In this document: positions 2,408-31,946 of the stretch, in pieces
Position numbering within the stretch: position 1 is the stretch's first letter
How the letters are laid out: the number at the start of each line of letters is the position of its first letter
NCBI RefSeq assembly: GCF_963921235.1
Contig: NC_086108.1
Span: 1,054,001 to 1,118,000, forward strand
DNA from: Mobula hypostoma
Taxonomy: Eukaryota
Direction: 5' to 3'
Length of the DNA stretch: 64,000 nt
Program-made: the position numbers and the translations under genes
The notes under the pieces: model-generated
Told to the model about the DNA's origin: nothing
What the model saw: the letters and a program-made list of their open reading frames with translations, nothing else
Database searches by the model: none

Positions 2408-3793
2408 TAACCATATAACAATTACAGCATGGAAACAGGCCATCTCAGCCCTTCTAGTCCGTGCTGAATACATATTCTCACCTAGTCCCATCTACCTGCA
2501 CTCAGCCCATAACCCTCCATTCCTTTCCTGTCCATATACCTATCCAATTTTTTTTTAAATGACAAAATCGAAGCTGCCTGTACCACTTCTACAGGAAGCT
2601 CATTCCACACAGCTACCACTCTCTGAGCAAAGAAGTACCCCTTCATATTACCCTTAAACTTTTGCCCCTTAACTCTCAACTCATGTCCTCTTGTTTGAAT
2701 CTCCCCAACTCTCAATGGAAAAAGCCAATCCACGTCAACTCTATCTATCCCCCTCATAATTTTAAATACCTCTATCAATTCTCCCCTCAGCCTTCTACGC
2801 TCCAAAGAATAAAGACCCAAATTGTTCAACCTTTCTCTTGTAACTTACGTGCTGAAACCCCGGTAACATTCTAGTAAATATCCTCTGTACTCTCTCTATT
2901 TTGTTGACATCTTTCCTATAATTCGGTGACCAGAACAGTACACAATACTCCAAATTTGGCCTCACCGATGCCTTGTACAATTTTAACATTACATCCCAAC
3001 TCCTATACTCAATGCTCTGATTTATAAAGGCCAGCATACCAAAAGCTTTCTTCACCACCCTATCCACATGAGATTCCACCTTCAGGGAACTATACACCAT
3101 TATTCCTAGATCCCTCTGTTCTACTGCATTCTTCAATACCCTACCATTTACCATGTATGTCCTATTTTGATTAGTCCTACCAAAATGTAGCACCTCACAT
3201 TTATCAGCATTAAACTCCATCTGCCATCTTTCAGCCCACTCTTCTAACTGGCCTAAATCTCTCTGCAAGCTTTGAAAACCTACTTCATTATCCACAACGC
3301 CACCTATCTTAGTATCATCTGCATATTTACTAATCCAATTTACCACCCCATCATCCAGATCATTAATGTATATGACAAACAACATTGGACCCAGTACAGA
3401 TCTCTAAGGCATACCACTAGTCACCGGCCTCCAACCTGACAAACAGTTATCCACCACTACTCTCTGGCATCTCCCATCCAGCCACTGTTGAATCCATTCT
3501 ACTACTTCAATATTAATACCTAACAATTGAACCTTCCTAACTAACCTTGCGTGTGGAACCTTGTCAAAGGCCTTACTGAAGTCCATATAGACAACATCCA
3601 CCACTTCACCATCATCAATTTTCCTAGTAGCCTCTTCAAAAAACTCAATAAGCACAAATCCATGTTGACTGTCCCTAATCAGACCCTGTCTATCCAGATA
3701 ATTATATATAACATCTCTAAGAATACTTTCCATTAATTTACCCACCACTGACGTCAAACTTTCAGGCCGATAATTGCCAGGTTTACTCTTAGA
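2408..3793 (-). mobile_element. CR1 LINE family B, 3' part (continues at 7919-8392)
   Basis: Minus-strand ORFs with YADD, PQG region and WNELP. 3' UTR with TTATATGG tail at ~2410. Reading resumes after the element at 3803-7918. Confidence 0.92.
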
Positions 3794-3849
3794 ACTCTTA
3801 GAGGCGAGGAAGGTTTGGCATTCATTTTCTGTTGTTATTTGAGGAGAGT

Positions 3850-4785
3850 ATGAGTGTGAGGGCAGTTTGCTGTTCTCGGTGTCGGATGTGGGAGGCCCTG
3901 GAGTCTCCAAGCCTCCCGGACGTCTACATCTGCACCAAGTGCATCGAGATGCAGCTCCTAAGGGACCGCGTTACAGAACTGGAGCTGCAGCTCGATGACC
4001 TTCGTCTGGTCAGGGAGAGTGAGGAGTTGATAGAGAGGAGTAGCAGGCAGGTGGTCACACCGGGGCCACGGGAGGCAGACAAGTGGGTCACGGTTAGGAG
4101 GGGGAAGGGGAAGATTCAGGTAATAGGGAGTACCCCGGTGGCTGTGCCCCTTAACAATAGGTACTCCTGTTTGAGTACTGTTGGGGGGGACAGCTTACCC
4201 AGGGGAAGCGACAGTGGCCGTGCCTCCGGCACAGAGTCTGGCCCTGCAGCTCAGAAGGGTAGGGCAAGGAAGAGGAGGGCAGTTGTGATAGGGGACTCGA
4301 TAGTAAGGGGGTCAGATAGGCGATTCTGTGGACACAGTCCAGAGACCCGGATGGTAGTTTGCCTCCCTGGTGCCAGGGTCCGGGATATTTCTGATCGTGT
4401 CCCAGATATCCTGAAGTGGGAGGGTGAGGAGCCAGAGGTCGTGGTACATATAGGTACCAATGACATAGGTAGGAAAAGGGATGAGGTCCTGAAAGGAGAA
4501 TATAGGGAGCTAGGAAGGGAGTTGAGAAAAAGGACCGCAAAGGTAGTAATCTCGGGATTACTGCCTGTGCCACGCGACAGTGAGAGTAGGAATGCGATGA
4601 GGTGGAGGATAAATGCGTGGCTGAGGGATTGGAGCAGGGGGCAGGGAATCAAGTTTTTGGATCATTGGGACCTCTTTTGGCGCAGGCGTGACCTGTACAA
4701 AAAGGACGGGTTACACTTGAATCCTAGGGGGACCAATATCCTGGCAGGGAGATTAGCGGGGGCTACTGAGGTGACTTTAAACTAG
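3850..4785 (+). CDS. CR1 ORF1p: zinc finger, coiled coil and SGNH/GDSL esterase domain
   Basis: ATG at 3850. CSRC...CTKC, heptad LRDRVTELELQLDDL, SGNH blocks IGDSIVR, HIGTND and DGLH. Confidence 0.93.
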   Translation: MSVRAVCCSRCRMWEALESPSLPDVYICTKCIEMQLLRDRVTELELQLDDLRLVRESEELIERSSRQVVTPGPREADKWVTVRRGKGKIQVIGSTPVAVPLNNRYSCLSTVGGDSLPRGSDSGRASGTESGPAAQKGRARKRRAVVIGDSIVRGSDRRFCGHSPETRMVVCLPGARVRDISDRVPDILKWEGEEPEVVVHIGTNDIGRKRDEVLKGEYRELGRELRKRTAKVVISGLLPVPRDSESRNAMRWRINAWLRDWSRGQGIKFLDHWDLFWRRRDLYKKDGLHLNPRGTNILAGRLAGATEVTLN

Positions 4786-7682
4786 AGTGGTTGGGGGGTG
4801 GGAATCAAATTAAAGAGGCTAGGCGAGAGGAGGTTAGTTCACAACAGAGGGATGGGAACCAGTGCAGAGAGACAGAGGGGTGTAAAGTGAGGGTAGAAAC
4901 AAAAAGTACTAAGGAGAAAAGTAAAAGTGGCAGGCCGACAAATCCAGGGCAAGCATTAAAAAGGGCCACTTTTCAGCATAATTGTATAAGGGCTAAGAGA
5001 GTTGTAAAAGAGCGCCTGAAGGCTTTGTGTGTCAATGCAAGGAGCATTCGTAACAAGGTGGATGAATTGAAAGTGCAGATTGTTATTAATGATTATGATA
5101 TAGTTGGGATCACAGAGACATGGCTCCAGGGTGACCAGGGATGGGAGCTCAACGTTCAGGGATATTCAATATTCAGGAGGGATAGACATGAAGGAAGGGG
5201 AGGTGGGCTGGCGTTGCTGGTTAAAGAAGAGATTAACGCAATAGAAAGGAAGGACATAAGCCGGGAAGATGTGGAATCGATATGGGTAGAGCTGCGTAAC
5301 ACTAAGGGGCAGAAGACGCTGGTGGGAGTTGTGTACAGGCCACCTGACAGTAGTAGTGAGGTCGGAGATGGTATTAAACAGGAAATTAGAAATGTGTGCA
5401 ATAAAGGAACAGCAGTTATAATGGGTGACTTCAATCTACATGTAGATTGGGTGAACCAAATTGGTAAAGGTGCTGAGGAAGAGGATTTCTTGGAATGTAT
5501 GCCGGATGGTTTTTTAAACCAACATGTCGAGGAACCAACTAGAGAGCAGGCTATTCTGGACTGGGTTTTGAGCAATGAAGAAGGGTTAATTAGTGATCTT
5601 GTCGTGAGAGGCCCCTTGGGTAAGAGTGACCATAATATGGTGGAATTCTTCATTAAGATGGAGAGTGACATAGTTAATTCAGAAACAAAGGTTCTGAACT
5701 TAAAGAGGGGTAACTTTGAAGGTATGAGACGTGAATTAGCTAAGATAGACTGGCAAATGACACTTAAAGGATTGACGGTGGATATGCAATGGCAAGCATT
5801 TAAAGGTTGCATGGATGAACTACAACAATTGTTCATCCCAGTTTGGCAAAAGAATAAATCAAGGAAGGTAGTGCACCCGTGGCTGACAAGAGAAATTAGG
5901 GATAGTATCAATTCCAAAGAAGTAGCATACAAATTAGCCAGAGAAAGTGGGTCACCTGAGGACTGGGAGAAATTCAGAGTTCAGCAGAGGAGGACAAAGG
6001 GCTTAATTAGGAAGGGGAAAAAAGATTATGAGAGAAAACTGGCAGAGAACATAAAAACGGACTGTAAAAGTTTTTATAGATATGTAAAAAGGAAAAGACT
6101 GGTAAAGACAAATGTAGGTCCCCTGCAGACAGAAACAGGTGAATTGATTATGGGGAGCAAAGACATGGCAGACCAATTGAATAATTACTTTGGTTCTGTC
6201 TTCACTAAGGAGGATATAAATAATCTTCCAGAAATAGTAGGGGACAGAGGGTCCAGTGAGATGGAGGAACTGAGCGAAATACATGTTAGTAGGGAAGTGG
6301 TGTTAGGTAAATTGAAGGGATTGAAGGCAGATAAATCCCCAGGGCCAGATGGTCTGCATCCTAGAGTGCTTAAGGAAGTAGCCCAAGAAATAGTGGATGC
6401 ATTAGTGATAATTTTTCAAAACTCGTTAGATTCTGGACTAGTTCCTGAGGATTGGAGGGTGGCTAATGTAACCCCATTTTTTAAAAAAGGAGGGAGAGAG
6501 AAACCGGGGAATTATAGACCGGTTAGCCTAACGTCGGTGGTGGGGAAACTGCTGGAGTCAGTTATCAAGGATGTGATAACAGCACATTTGGAAAGCGGTG
6601 AAATGATCGGACAAAGTCAGCATGGATTTGTGAAAGGAAAATCATGTCTGCCGAATCTCATAGAATTTTTTGAGCATGTAACTAGTAGAGTGGATAGGGG
6701 AGAACCAGTGGATGTGGTATATTTGGATTTTCAAAAGGCTTTTGACAAGGTCCCACACAGGAGATTAGTGTGCAAACTTAAAGCACACAGTATTGGGGGT
6801 AAGGTATTGGTGTGGGTGGAGAATTGGTTAGCAGACAGGAAGCAAAGAGTGGGAATAAACGGGACCTTTTCAGAATGGCAGGCGGTGACTAGTGGGGTAC
6901 CGCAAGGCTCAGTGCTGGGACCCCAGTTGTTTACAATATATATTAATGACTTGGATGAGGGAATTAAATGCAGCATCTCCAAGTTTGCGGATGACACGAA
7001 GCTGGGCGGCAGTGTTAGCAGTGAGGAGGATGCTAAGAGGATGCAGGGTGACTTGGATAGGTTGGGTGAGTGGGCAAATTCATGGCAGATGCAATTTAAT
7101 GTGGATAAATGTGAAGTTATCCACTTTGGTGGCAAAAATAGGAAAACAGATTATTATCTGAATGGTGGCCGATTAGGAAAGGGGGAGGTGCAACGAGACC
7201 TGGGTGTCATTATACACCAGTCATTGAAAGTGGGCATGCAGGTACAGCAGGCGGTGAAAAAGGTGAATGGTATGCTGGCATTTATAGCGAGAGGATTCGA
7301 GTACAGGAGCAGGGAGGTACTATTGCAGTTGTACAAGGCCTTGGTGGGACCACACCTGGAGTATTGTGTGCAGTTTTGGTCCCCTAATCTGAGGAAAGAC
7401 ATCCTTGCCATAGAGGGAGTACAAAGAAGGTTCACCAGATTGATTCCTGGGATGGCAGGACTTTCATATGAAGAAAGACTGGATGAACTGGGCTTGTACT
7501 CGTTGGAATTTAGAAGATTGAGGGGGCATCTGATTGAAACGTATAAAATCCTAAAGGGATTGGACAGGCTAGATGCAGGAAGATTGTTCCCGATCTTGGG
7601 GAAGTCCAGAACGAGGGGCCACAGTTTGAGGATAGAGGGGAAGCCTTTTTGGACTGAGATTAGGAAAAACTTCTTCACATAG
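4776..7682 (+). CDS. CR1 ORF2p (APE endonuclease and reverse transcriptase), ending at a premature TAG
   Basis: Motifs [28 protein letters not shown] and FADD. Frame is open from 4770. TAG at 7680-7682 is CAG in copy 2, which encodes 45 further residues. The start given is the proposed frameshift site. Confidence 0.9.
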   Translation, partial: FKLEWLGGGNQIKEARREEVSSQQRDGNQCRETEGCKVRVETKSTKEKSKSGRPTNPGQALKRATFQHNCIRAKRVVKERLKALCVNARSIRNKVDELKVQIVINDYDIVGITETWLQGDQGWELNVQGYSIFRRDRHEGRGGGLALLVKEEINAIERKDISREDVESIWVELRNTKGQKTLVGVVYRPPDSSSEVGDGIKQEIRNVCNKGTAVIMGDFNLHVDWVNQIGKGAEEEDFLECMPDGFLNQHVEEPTREQAILDWVLSNEEGLISDLVVRGPLGKSDHNMVEFFIKMESDIVNSETKVLNLKRGNFEGMRRELAKIDWQMTLKGLTVDMQWQAFKGCMDELQQLFIPVWQKNKSRKVVHPWLTREIRDSINSKEVAYKLARESGSPEDWEKFRVQQRRTKGLIRKGKKDYERKLAENIKTDCKSFYRYVKRKRLVKTNVGPLQTETGELIMGSKDMADQLNNYFGSVFTKEDINNLPEIVGDRGSSEMEELSEIHVSREVVLGKLKGLKADKSPGPDGLHPRVLKEVAQEIVDALVIIFQNSLDSGLVPEDWRVANVTPFFKKGGREKPGNYRPVSLTSVVGKLLESVIKDVITAHLESGEMIGQSQHGFVKGKSCLPNLIEFFEHVTSRVDRGEPVDVVYLDFQKAFDKVPHRRLVCKLKAHSIGGKVLVWVENWLADRKQRVGINGTFSEWQAVTSGVPQGSVLGPQLFTIYINDLDEGIKCSISKFADDTKLGGSVSSEEDAKRMQGDLDRLGEWANSWQMQFNVDKCEVIHFGGKNRKTDYYLNGGRLGKGEVQRDLGVIIHQSLKVGMQVQQAVKKVNGMLAFIARGFEYRSREVLLQLYKALVGPHLEYCVQFWSPNLRKDILAIEGVQRRFTRLIPGMAGLSYEERLDELGLYSLEFRRLRGHLIETYKILKGLDRLDAGRLFPILGKSRTRGHSLRIEGKPFWTEIRKNFFT

Positions 7683-7918
7683 AGAGTGGTGAATCTGTGG
7701 AATTCTCTGCCACAGGAAACAGTTGAGGCCAGTTCATTGGCTATATTTAAGAGGGAGTTAGATATGGCCCTTGTGGCTACGGGGATCAGAGGGTATGGAG
7801 GGAAGGCTGGGTGGGGTTCTGAGTTGGATGATCAGCCATGATCATAATAAATGGCAGTGCGGGCTCGAAGGGCCGAATGGCCTACTCCTGCACCTACTTT
7901 CTATGTTTCTATGTTTCT

Positions 7919-8392
7919 AACCCTTTTTAAACAATAGAACCACATGAGCAATATGCCAATCCTCCAGCACCATCCCCGTTTCTAATGACATTTGAAATAT
8001 TTCTGTCAGAGCCCCTGCTATTTCTACTCTGACGAGGGAATATTCTGTCAGGACCCGGAGACTTATCCACTTTTATATTCCTTTAAGGCGCCAGTACTTC
8101 CTCTTCTTTAATCATCATACTTTCCATAACTACCCTACTTTTTTCCCTTACCTTACACAATTCAATATCCTTCTCCTTAGTGAATACCGAAGAAAAGAAA
8201 TTGTTCAAAATCTCCCCCATCTCTTTTGGCTCTGCATATAGTCGTCCACTCTGATTCTCTATGGGACCAATTTTATCCCTCACTATCCTTTTTCTTTTAA
8301 TATAACTGTAGAAACCCTTTGGATTTATTTTCACTTTACTTGCCAAAGCAATCTCATATCTTCTTTTAGTTTTTCTAATTTCTTTCTTAAGA
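7919..8392 (-). mobile_element. CR1 family B, 5' continuation of 2408-3793
   Basis: ORF 8083-8397 (NPKGFYSYIK, FSSVFT) is the endonuclease-RT linker, collinear with the segment left of 3793. Confidence 0.88.
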
Positions 8393-9439: not shown

Positions 9440-12400
9440 GGTTGAGAGAGATGGTTGAGATATGGGAACCAAACTGAAGAGGCAGAGGAAGAGGCGGTTG
9501 GCTTAAAAATAAAGAAAGCTTGGAGACAGTGCGAGAGGGATGATAGGCAGGTGATAGAGAAGGGACGTGCTCAGACCAATGGTGTGAGATGCGTCTATTT
9601 TAATGCAAGGAGTATGAACAAAGTGGATGAGCTTAGAGCATGGATCAGTACTTGGAGCTATGACATTGTGGCCATTACAGAAATTTGGATGGCTGTGGGA
9701 CAAGAATGGTTACTTCAAGTGCCAGGCTTTAGATGTTTCAGAAAGGACAGGGAGGGAGGCAAAAGAGGTGGGGACGTGGTACTGTTGATCAGAAATAGCG
9801 TTACGGCCGCAGAAAAGGAGGAAGTCATGGAGGGATTGTTTACGGAGTCTCTGTGGGTGGAAGTTAGGAACAGGAAGGGATCAATAACTCTTCTGGGTAT
9901 TTTTCATAGGCCGCCCAATAGTAACAGGAACATCGAGGAGCAGATAGGGAGACAGATTCTGGAAAGGTGTAATAATAACAGGGTTGTCATGGTGGGAGAT
10001 ATTAATTTCCCAAATATCGATTGGCATCTCCCTAGAGTGAGGGGATTAGATAGGGTGGAGTTTGTTAGGTGTGTTCAGGAAGGTTTCTTGACACAATATG
10101 TAGGCAAGCCTACAAGAGGAGAGGCTGTACTTGATCTGGTATTGGGAAATGAACATGGTCAGGTGTCAGATCTCTCAGTGGGAGAGCATTTTGGAGATAG
10201 TGATCACAATTCTATCTCCTTTACCATATCATTGGAGAGGGGTAGGAACAGACAAGTTAGGAAAGCTTTTAATTGGAGTAGGGGGAAATATGAGGCTATC
10301 ATGCAGGAACTTGAAAGCATAAATTGGGACCAGATTTCTCAGGGAAATGTATGGAAGAAATGTAGCAAATGTTCAGGGGATATTTGCGTGGAGTTCTTCA
10401 TGGGTACATTCCAATGAGACAGGGAATGGATGGTAGGGTACAGGAACCGTGGTGTACAAAGGCTGTTGAAAATCTAGTCAAGAGAAAAGAAAAGCTTACG
10501 AAAGGTTCAAAAAAACTAGGTAATGATAGAGATCTAGAAAATTATAAGGGTAACAGGAAGGAGCTTAAGAATGAAGTTAGGAGAGCCAGAAAGGGTCCAT
10601 GGGAAGGCCTTGGCGGGCAGGATTAAGGAAAACCCCAAGGCATTCTACAAGTAGGTGATGAGCAAGAGGTTAAGACGTGAGAGAATAGGACCAATCAAGT
10701 GTGACAGTGGAAAAGTATGTATGGAACCGGAAGTGTGCATGGAACCAGAGGTACTTAATGAGTACATTGCTTCAGTATTCACTACAGAAAAGGATCTTGG
10801 CGATTGTAGGGTTGACTTACAACAGACTGAAAAGCTTGAGCATGTAGATATTAAGAAAGAGGTTGTGTTGGAGCTTTTGGAGAGCATCAAATTGGTTAAA
10901 TCACTGGGACCGGATGAGATGTACCAGGGAGGAGATTGCTGAGCCTCTGGCGATGATCTTTGCATCATCAATGGGTCAGGAGAGGTCCCGGAGGATTGGA
11001 GGGTTGCGGATGTTGTTCCCTTATTCAAGAAAGGGAGTAGAGATAGCCCAGGAAATCATAGATCAGTGAATCTTACTTCAGTGGTTGCTAAGTTGGTGGA
11101 GAAGATCCTGAGAGGCAGGATTCATGAACATTTGGAGAGGTATAATATGATTAGGAATAGTCAGCATGGCTTTGTCAAAGGCAGGTCGTGCCTTACGAGC
11201 CTGATTGAATTTTTTGAGGATGTGACTAATCACATTGATGAAGGTAGAGCAGTTGATGTAGTGTATATGGATTTCAGCAAGGCATTTGACAAGGTACCCC
11301 ATGCAAGGCTTATTGAGAAAGTAAGGAGGCATGGGATCCAAGGGGACATTGCTTTGTGGATCCAGAACTGGCTTGCCCACAGAAGGCAAAGAGTGGTTGT
11401 AGACAGGTCATATTCTGCATGGGGGTCGCTGACCAGTGGTGTGCTTCAGGGATCTGTTCTGGGACCCCTACTCTTCGTGATTTTTATAAATGACTTGGAT
11501 GAGGAAGTGGAGGATGGGTTAGTAAATTTGCTGATGACAACGGTTCGGGGTGTTGTGGATAGGTGTGTAGGGCTACCAAACGTTACAGTGGGATATCGAT
11601 AGGATTCAAAACAGGGCTGAAAAGTGACAGATAGAGTTCAACCCAGATATTGTGAGGTGGTTCTTTTTGGTAGGTCAAGTATGATGGCAGAATATAGTAT
11701 TAATGGTAAGACTCTTGACAGTGTGGAGGATCAGAGGGATCCTGGGGTCCGAGTTCATAGGACACTCAAAGCTGCTGTGCAAGTTGATTCTTTGGTTAAG
11801 AAAGCATATGGTGCATTGGCCTTCATCAATCATTGGATTGAGTTTAGGAACTGAGAGGCAAAGGTGCAGCTATATAGGTTGTCAGGTTGGAGGCCGGTGA
11901 CTAGTGGTGTGCCTCAGGGATCTGTACTGGGTCCAATGTTGTTTGTCATATACATTAATGATCTGGATGATGGGGTGGTAAATTGGATTAGTAAGTATGC
12001 AGATGATACTAAGATAAGTGGAGTTGTGGATAATGAAGTAGGTTTTCAAAGCTTGCAGAGAGATTTAGGCCAATTAGAAGAGTGGGCTGAAAGATAACAA
12101 ATGGCGTTTAATGCTGATAAATGTGAGGTGCTACATTTTGATAGGACTAATCAAAATAGGACATACATGGTAAATGGTAGGGCATTAAAGAATGCAGTAG
12201 AACAGAGGGATCTAGGAATAATGGTGCATAGTTCCCTGAAGGTGGAATCTCATGTGGATAGGGTGGTGAAGAAAGCTTTTGGTATGCTGGCCTTTATAAA
12301 TCAGAGCATTGAGTATAGGAGTTGGGATGTAATGTTGAAATTGTACAAGGCATTGGTAAGGCCAAATTTGGAGTATTGTGCACAGTTCTGGTCACCGAAT

Positions 12401-17900: not shown

Positions 17901-18897
17901 TTTACTTTTCCCCTTTGTACTTTTTGCTTCTACCCTCACTTTACACCCCTCTGTCTCTCTGCACTGGTTCCCATCCCTCTGTTGTGAACTAACCTCCTCA
18001 CACCTAGCCGCTTTAATTTAATTCCCACCCCCCAACCATTCTAGTTTAAAGTCACCTCAGTAGCCCCCGCTAATCTCCCTGCCAGGATATTGGTCCCCCG
18101 AGGATTTAAGTGTAACCCGTCCTTTTTGTACAGGTCACACCTGCGCCAAAAGAGGTCCCAATGATCCAAAAACTTGAATCCCTGCCCCCTGCTCCAATCC
18201 CTCAGCCACGCATTTATCCTCCACCTCATCGCATTCCTACTCTCACTGTCGCGTGGCACAGGCAGTAATCCCGAGATTACTACCTTTGCGGTCCTTTTTC
18301 TCAACTCCCTTCCTAGCTCCCTATATTCTTCTTTCAGGACCTCATCCCTTTTCCTACCTATGTCATTGGTACCTATATGTACCAGGACCTCTGGCTCTTC
18401 ACCCTCCCACTTCAGGATATCTTGGACACGATCAGAAATATCCCGGACCCTGGCACCAGGGAGGCAAACTACCATCCGAGTCTCTGGACTGCGTCCACAG
18501 AATCGCCTATCTGACCCCCTTACTATCGAGTCCCCTATCACAACTGCCCTCCTCTTCCTTGCCCTACCCTTCTGAGCTACAGGGCCAGACTCTGTGCCGG
18601 AGGCAGGGCCACTGTCGCTTCCCCCGGGTAAGCTGTCCCCGCCAACAGTACTCAAACAGGAGTACCTGTTGTTAAGGGGCACAGCCGCCGGGGTACTCCC
18701 CATCACCTTCCTTTTCCCCTTCCCCCTCCTAACCGTGACCCACTTGTCTGCCTCCCGTGGCCCCGGCGTGACCACCTGCCTTCCACTCCTCTCTATCACC
18801 TCCTCACTCTCCCTGACCAGACGAAGGTCATCGAGCTGCAGCTCCAGTTCCGTAACGCGGTCCCTTAGGAGCTGCATCTCGATGCACTTGGCGCAGA
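14945..18897 (-). mobile_element. CR1 family A copy 2: 5'-truncated within the ORF1 zinc finger, ORF2 disrupted
   Basis: ORF1 remnant 18041-18897 and ORF2 pieces 15573-17939 and 15043-15531, nearly identical to copy 1. 7-nt deletion at ~15585 and CAA>TAA at ~18018-18020. Confidence 0.96.
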
Positions 18898-31746: not shown

Positions 31747-31946
31747 NNNNNNNNNNNNNNNNNNNNNNNNNNNNNNNNNNNNNNNNNNNNNNNNNNNNNN
31801 NNNNNNNNNNNNNNNNNNNNNNNNNNNNNNNNNNNNNNNNNNNNNNNNNNNNNNNNNNNNNNNNNNNNNNNNNNNNNNNNNNNNNNNNNNNNNNNNNNNN
31901 NNNNNNNNNNNNNNNNNNNNNNNNNNNNNNNNNNNNNNNNNNNNNN
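31747..31946. other. Assembly gap (200 N)
   Basis: Run of exactly 200 N, a typical scaffolding spacer. Confidence 0.99.

Follow-up and report, generated by a model that had tools for sequence, protein, structure and literature searches.

How ribosomes come to translate the second open reading frame (ORF2) on the bicistronic RNA of a long interspersed nuclear element (LINE) is still an open question, described as such by Luke et al., who cite the UAAUG motif of SART1 (PMC3894237). The question is raised by a stretch of 64,000 nucleotides (nt) of Mobula hypostoma (contig NC_086108.1, positions 1,054,001 to 1,118,000; hereafter the window), in which a full-length LINE of the CR1 type, the dominant LINE of many vertebrates (PMC13343379), is located at ~3850–7919 on the (+) strand. 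ORF1 of this element ends in a slippery heptamer that is followed directly by the stop codon, and ORF2 lies in the −1 frame. The heptamer, its phase and the adjoining stop form a deeply conserved signal and offer a concrete mechanism for ORF2 translation. We put the probability that the junction serves as a conserved signal for −1 ribosomal frameshifting, with a fusion of the ORF1 and ORF2 proteins (ORF1p and ORF2p) as its product, at roughly 60%. The features of the element are listed in Table 1.

In the window copy, ORF1 ends GTG ACT TTA AAC TAG, which places T_TTA_AAC in the X_XXY_YYZ phase, as the initial annotation of this DNA had proposed from the letters alone. Its description of ORF2 as a −1 frame that is open only from 4770, behind a TGA, was likewise correct. 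The closing TGA is not universal, family 2 (see below) having TGG. The first methionine of the ORF2 frame is residue 218, located past the endonuclease motifs NARS, ITETW and YRPP and within AVIMGDFN; the reported GGTTGGGGGGTGGG begins at 4789, six nt past the heptamer. The second copy of the junction in the window carries TTTAAACTAG at 18050→18041, i.e., on the minus strand, which the annotation had left out. ORF1 has no canonical heptamer other than TTTAAAC in any phase (309 in-phase positions tested), and the rate of canonical heptamers over the element is 3 per 1272 in-phase positions. Since only three in-phase positions fit the 16-nt overlap of the two frames, the chance of a heptamer falling within it is roughly 0.7%. 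A look-up of RNA records covering 4500–5100 listed none.

Searches of the own genome were carried out over the 3.48-Gb vertebrate genome. With the DNA of the window element (family 1), 1125 candidates were obtained, and all 40 that were scored were 98–100% identical; family 1 is evidently very young and abundant. Its junction reads ACT TTA AAC TAG, and TTTAAAC is intact in 55 of the 58 fetched loci, which correspond to 57 distinct copies (L012 and L035 overlap). Near-identical copies are uninformative on selection and, therefore, diverged relatives were examined. A search of the same genome with the esterase domain of ORF1 gave 29,326 candidates. Family 2 has AGT TTA AAC TAG, a 7-nt spacer and a G-run, with the heptamer intact in 8 of 12 old copies. 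The old family 3, which carries many stops and has the ORF1 tail ...DRALN, reads GCT TTA AAC TAA ATAGTA GGGGGG (intact in 8/10), and family 4, with intact frames of 324/333 amino acids (aa) and the tail ...REGLN, reads GGT TTA AAC TAA TTTGGCA GGGGG (10/10). All four families have ORF2 in the −1 frame, and no restart AUG in the ORF2 frame was found near the junction in any of them. The first methionine of ORF2 in family 2 falls inside NARSM.

More distant relatives were sought in metagenome contigs, which were scanned with an alignment of 38 ORF1 proteins. This yielded 41 loci with 22–52% aa identity, and the 3′ end of ORF1, at 22–38% aa identity, is present in 18 of them: 16 have exactly TTTAAAC, one has GTTAAAC (L077) and one, a decayed copy, has TTTAAAT (L083). 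The stop codon directly follows the heptamer in 14 of the 16 exact loci and is mostly TAG, with TAA in L093 and TGA in L100. The long open frame is the −1 frame in 12 of 15 junctions, the three exceptions being decayed copies. In five loci this frame stays open for 363–402 codons until the contig ends, and in the window for 968 codons.

Column conservation was measured on 17 lineage representatives anchored on the heptamer, which is TTTAAAC in 16 of them and GTTAAAC in the remaining one. Mean conservation is 0.96 for the 10 nt of heptamer and stop, 0.53 for the 7-nt spacer, and again 0.96 (columns 0.88–1.00) for five G's at +17 to +21. Both flanks average 0.50, and their pairwise identity is 0.52 vs. 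0.48 in shuffled sequence. The conserved feature downstream is thus a single run of five or six G's at 10 nt; the run starts at this distance from the heptamer in 12 of 15 junctions, the window copy included, and at 9, 7 and 12 nt in the others. This arrangement, in which a spacer of fixed length and free sequence separates the putative shift site from a second element, is that of a recoding signal. The test suggested in the initial annotation, conservation of the heptamer and its phase against synonymous alternatives, was strongly favourable across the four families and the metagenome CR1 loci.

Codon choice at the junction is similarly restricted. All representatives encode the Leu with TTA, which accounts for only 18 of the 117 Leu codons of the element, and the Asn codon of the heptamer is AAC, used for 15 of 50 Asn codons. 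The codon before TTA is ACT, AGT, GCT, GGT, TAT, CAT, TGT, TCT, TTT or, once, TCG, and ends in T in nine of these ten types. The retention of the third-base T while the first two bases vary is what tandem slippage requires, because UUA must re-pair to UUU.

The same trace can be followed in proteins. Two protein searches gave 253 ORF1p homologues, 179 of which reach the C-end, and 120 of these have Leu-Asn as their last two residues (83/92 in the closer set, 37/87 in the distant representative set). Eight more end in Gln-Gly-Asn, and the other 51 include nine that are also Asn-terminal. The named proteins with the Leu-Asn end come from rays, sharks, coelacanth, frogs, turtles, snakes, lizards and a hummingbird, and this end before the stop persists where ORF1p identity drops to 28–38%. 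At position −3 the 120 proteins have A (30), G (28), S (17), T (14), Y (10), C (6), F (4), D (3), E, H and N (2 each), V and I (1 each); residues for which no U-ending codon is possible occur in two of them, both Glu. The depletion of such residues at −3 is real and suggestive.

A sister clade of 17 esterase ORF1 proteins from metagenome assemblies (P0113, P0163, P0166, P0170, P0179, P0190, P0207, P0223, P0270–P0275, P0278, P0280 and P0282) has a variable tail followed by x-Gly-Asn, where x is Q in 14 proteins and V, A and K once each. All these ends are compatible with G_GGA_AAC; if this is the underlying sequence, the first base of the heptamer covaries with the change from Leu to Gly. DNA of this clade was not found in the own genome, where the best matches (41% identity) are families with the Leu-Asn end, nor in the scans of viral contigs or genome contigs. 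Other distant ORF1 groups end in FFR, ECRG or GFLG.

The proposed cassette comprises U_UUA_AAC in the ORF1 phase, the adjoining stop, the 7-nt spacer of free sequence and the run of five or six G's. Most ribosomes would terminate at the stop and release the esterase ORF1p. A minority would slip back by one base, with tRNA-Leu and tRNA-Asn moving from UUA/AAC to UUU/AAA, and would then read CUA-GAG-UGG... through the endonuclease and the reverse transcriptase (RT), producing a fusion with the junction ...EVTLN-LEWLGGGNQ.... In a variant of this scheme, the ribosome would slip after a further codon, when the A site holds the stop, and the G-run would then lie 7 nt from the A-site codon. The efficiency of slippage is probably low, which would suit a LINE that needs far less ORF2p than ORF1p. 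Since no stable RNA structure is conserved downstream, a factor bound to the G-run may mediate its effect, or the run may be a roadblock at the mRNA entry channel. Slippage itself, its efficiency and the role of the G-run are what we infer from sequence comparison.

A wider form of this proposal is tentative, and we put its chances somewhat below even. It holds that all vertebrate esterase-type CR1 elements, from sharks to birds, make the endonuclease and RT only as a trans-frame fusion, at a 10-nt cassette that has stayed unchanged over several hundred million years. The pseudoknot would be replaced by a linear G-run at a distance of 10 nt, which a host protein might recognize, or else ORF1p, in which case there would be feedback, and the sister clade would use G_GGA_AAC (the Gln-Gly-Asn end). 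On this wider view, the cassette would be the first frameshift signal of the gag-pol style, independent of RNA structure, to define an entire LINE clade.

A number of observations weigh against frameshifting, and the first group concerns the downstream RNA. No stable structure was found in the fold of the window sequence (z = +0.49), no shared helix was found across 12 lineages (z from −1.2 to +2.0; these are single-sequence folds, and pseudoknots are beyond the method), and there was no Rfam match in 4650–5000. The stem-loop or pseudoknot located 5–9 nt downstream of a canonical −1 site is thus missing from these predictions. The initial annotation had named a two-tier G-quadruplex as a possible stimulator. 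Only two of the 12 lineages (families 1 and 4) have such a structure predicted there, and it was therefore rejected as the conserved stimulator; L072, L074 and L076 have a lone G6 run instead. Next, the lineages share descent, so that the counts given above are of non-independent events, and the metagenome contigs have no known host. The depletion of E, K, Q, M and W at position −3 of the proteins (3/121) is not unique to this position, as −6 (6/121) and −7 (7/121) show similar values. Finally, adjacency of the stop is not needed in classical −1 frameshifting and hints that termination is part of the mechanism.

The region downstream of the heptamer is purine-rich. In families 1, 2 and 4 the G-rich element contains UGGGA-like letters, downstream of the stop and not upstream of it; the TURBS element of influenza B/calicivirus-type reinitiation, which is complementary to 18S rRNA, is an upstream one. 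In L075, L081, L082 and L087, a hairpin (CCAGGC...GCCTGG and variants) is predicted ~25–50 nt past the stop and ~30 nt past the heptamer; it was not seen in the other lineages and is probably too distant for a classical stimulator.

The hint of termination leads to the rival explanation that survives best, termination-dependent reinitiation. Ribosomes would stop at the end of ORF1, be held there by the conserved block, the G-run or both, and start again nearby in the −1 frame at an AUG or a non-AUG codon, so that ORF2p would be a separate protein. In the lineage representatives the stop always abuts the heptamer, and any of the three stops serves, as this explanation would have it. An ORF2-frame AUG is present within five codons of the stop in 4 of 15 junctions, which makes reinitiation a serious rival, at least for some lineages. 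L071, L075 and L081 carry an ATG two codons past the stop (at codon 4). In L093 the AUG overlaps the stop as UAAUG, a classical motif of reinitiation and the one that SART1 uses for coupling (PMC3894237, PMC10275272). L074 and L079 have GUG where L075 and L081 have AUG, and the near-cognate codons GUG, UUG, CUG and AUU are found near the restart position in several other lineages.

However, reinitiation predicts neither an in-phase X_XXY_YYZ heptamer nor a fixed U before UUA with the rest of that codon variable, and we know of no requirement for such a U in reinitiation. The young and abundant families 1 and 4 have no −1-frame AUG near the junction, the first one in the window being at codon 215 from the heptamer, and L082 and L072 have UCG where others have AUG. 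Downstream structure of the SART1 type is not conserved in the 12 lineages. As an account of the junction in general, reinitiation is considered less likely than frameshifting, though it deserves to be taken seriously. Taken together, the frameshift interpretation of the initial annotation stands with regard to the heptamer and its phase and falls with regard to the G-quadruplex. Its expectation that no in-frame AUG precedes the endonuclease holds in the window family but fails in L071, L075, L081 and L093.

According to the next explanation, the 10-nt block and the G-run have a role outside translation, as a packaging site for ORF1p or a host protein or as a processing or polyadenylation-like signal, and ORF2 is expressed via internal entry or a truncated transcript. 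Two short islands with a fixed spacer and no RNA structure do look like a linear protein-binding motif, and UUUAAA is a rare variant of the poly(A) signal. Nevertheless, the codon phase of the block is the same in all lineages, and its end coincides with the ORF1 stop in each of them. From the block, or from just before it, the −1 frame runs open into the endonuclease; this would be difficult to account for if ORF2 translation did not start at that point, and a role outside translation appears improbable. That the junction has no function, being inherited from a common CR1 ancestor so that one chance resemblance to a slippery site is counted many times, is already very unlikely on the comparative data, since the flanks are at the shuffled level while the 10 + 5 nt hold ~0.96, the Leu-Asn end survives the low ORF1p identities given above and synonymous alternatives are never used in the representatives.

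A close parallel to the proposed frameshift site is the ORF1a/1b junction of coronaviruses and arteriviruses, which has the same heptamer in the same phase and a downstream polymerase-type ORF in the −1 frame. The slippery site of equine arteritis virus is G_UUA_AAC, and the GTTAAAC variant of L077 corresponds to this arterivirus form. In coronaviruses the ORF1a/1b overlap is exceptionally conserved (PMC8499926). The viral sites have a pseudoknot 5–7 nt downstream and a 0-frame stop that is not adjacent, whereas the CR1 junction has no conserved structure, an adjacent stop and a G-run at 10 nt. The 10-nt distance to a linear G-run resembles, by analogy, the layout of protein-stimulated frameshifting in arteriviruses and cardioviruses, where the stimulating sequence has little or no structure and lies at a greater distance from the shift site than a pseudoknot would. 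In these viruses, stimulation involves, respectively, nsp1beta and PCBP at a C-rich motif ~10–11 nt downstream, and the 2A protein.

The gag-pol arrangement of retroviruses and long terminal repeat (LTR) retrotransposons, and that of PEG10, whose heptamer is G_GGA_AAC, likewise joins a small upstream ORF, at a tandem-slippage heptamer, to a large one that carries the RT in the −1 frame. Among 51 surveyed animal LTR elements, pol is in the −1 frame in 28 (PMC5009743). Unlike these, CR1 is a non-LTR element without a protease, so that the fusion would stay fused, and its ORF1 encodes an esterase and not a capsid.

Among LINEs, the nearest published claim of −1 frameshifting concerns TRE5-A and TRE3-A of Dictyostelium, APE-type elements of a different clade and host. 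Human L1 restarts at ORF2 with no need for an AUG. L1 and SART1 of Bombyx are also bicistronic, and their ORF2 is made by ribosomes fresh from ORF1 (PMC3894237, PMC10275272). SART1 needs an overlapping AUG and a downstream structure, neither of which is present in the window family, and both SART1 and L1 lack a conserved slippery heptamer. The Atkins review treats −1 frameshifting in LTR elements, and the part of it available to us covers only HeT-A, TART and L1 among non-LTR elements (PMC5009743). The accessible sections of a 2026 survey of the CR1 group make no mention of overlap, stop codon, translation or frameshift (PMC13343379). No report of a slippery heptamer or −1 frameshift in CR1 was found in the full-text literature, the coverage of which does not extend to key older CR1 papers, so prior mention is possible.

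If the junction does direct frameshifting, it would set the ratio of ORF1p to ORF2p and would keep ORF2p in physical connection with ORF1p and its own RNA. It would be a case of natural −1 frameshifting without obvious RNA structure. The annotation of CR1 ORF2 would also change, as gene callers now start it at an internal Met or merge it with gene models of the host (P0262, P0026).

Five ORF1p homologues are longer matches, and all of them are chimeric gene models, so fused homologues were rejected as evidence of frameshifting. P0262, in which ORF1 runs into the −1 frame (...AARGG-FKLDVQGAG...), was taken to be a copy with an indel. Misleading records that contain CR1 ORF1 are found among P0022, P0026, P0062/P0065, P0262 and P0263. 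One of them is labelled 'SGNH/GDSL hydrolase [Pseudomonas aeruginosa]' on a 4-kb contig and is probably vertebrate contamination; the ray and sawfish gene models holding CR1 ORF1 are named 40S ribosomal protein S24, transmembrane protein 204, hydroxyacid oxidase 2 and V-set/Ig protein.

Table 1. Features of the CR1 element and of related copies in the window (positions in the 64,000-nt stretch).
Feature	Position	Strand	Remarks
CR1 ORF1, 311 aa + stop	3850..4785	+	ATG 3850, TAG 4783-4785; frame 1 mod 3; N-terminal Cys motif, coiled region, SGNH/GDSL esterase; C-end ...EVTLN
TGA closing the ORF2 frame	4767..4769	+	Two codons before the heptamer; kept in 30/30 family-1 loci
ORF2, 970 codons + stop	4770..7682	+	Stop 7680-7682; frame 0 mod 3, i.e., −1 relative to ORF1
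T_TTA_AAC slippery heptamer	4776..4782	+	Canonical, in ORF1 phase
ORF1 stop TAG	4783..4785	+	Abuts the heptamer
7-nt spacer	4786..4792	+	Sequence variable, length constant
G-rich element GGGGGG T GGG	4793..4802	+	Second conserved island
APE-type endonuclease	~5073-5633	+	Exo_endo_phos E = 4.8e-12, Exo_endo_phos_2 E = 4.3e-9
First ATG of the ORF2 frame	5421..5423	+	Downstream of the first endonuclease catalytic motifs
Reverse transcriptase	~6492-7145	+	RVT_1 E = 3.1e-33
Octamer repeat at the 3′ terminus, (TTTCTATG) x2.8	7898..7919	+	CR1-type tail, no poly(A)
Second CR1 family, 5′-truncated copy	9446..10417	+	Endonuclease 37% aa identical to family 1
Copy 2 junction	18041..18050	-	96.6% identical over 351 nt; TTTAAACTAG then AATGGTTGGGGGGTGGG

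The element is assigned to CR1 on the basis of its ORF1 homologues in turtles, squamates, a bird and alligator and of its tail, the chicken-type CR1 octamer being named in PMC2612034. ORF1 is of the esterase type (Pfam Lipase_GDSL_2, E = 2.5e-17; PDB 4c1b, the ZfL2-1 ORF1p esterase, E = 1.3e-29), the only identifiable ORF1 type in CR1 and L2 (PMC13343379). The closest named ORF1p homologue is 94% identical and is annotated in Mobula hypostoma.

The 3′ part of ORF1 and the junction are ~85% identical at the DNA level between families 1 and 2, while the endonucleases have only the aa identity given in Table 1 (4300–4860 compared with L061–L070 and the truncated copy in the window). The linker from the junction to the endonuclease is ~95 codons long in family 1 vs. 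50 in family 2. This pattern suggests that CR1 lineages have exchanged ORF1 as a module, a process known for the Jockey superfamily (PMC4120745).

Position 4787 is G in the window and A in 55 of the 58 fetched family-1 loci, which read CTAGAATGG. A third-frame mini-ORF of 8 codons, MVGGWESN* (4787–4813, with its ATG at 4787), is present in 55 of 58 family-1 copies and not in the window copy. It was rejected as a feature because it is absent in full family-2 copies and in families 3 and 4. The truncated family-2 copy at 9451 has a similar mini-ORF.

Upstream of the element, at 2482–3970 on the minus strand, RT and C-terminal fragments of another LINE lie head-to-head with it in three broken frames. 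A run of 200 N at 31747–31946 is an assembly gap or a withheld stretch.

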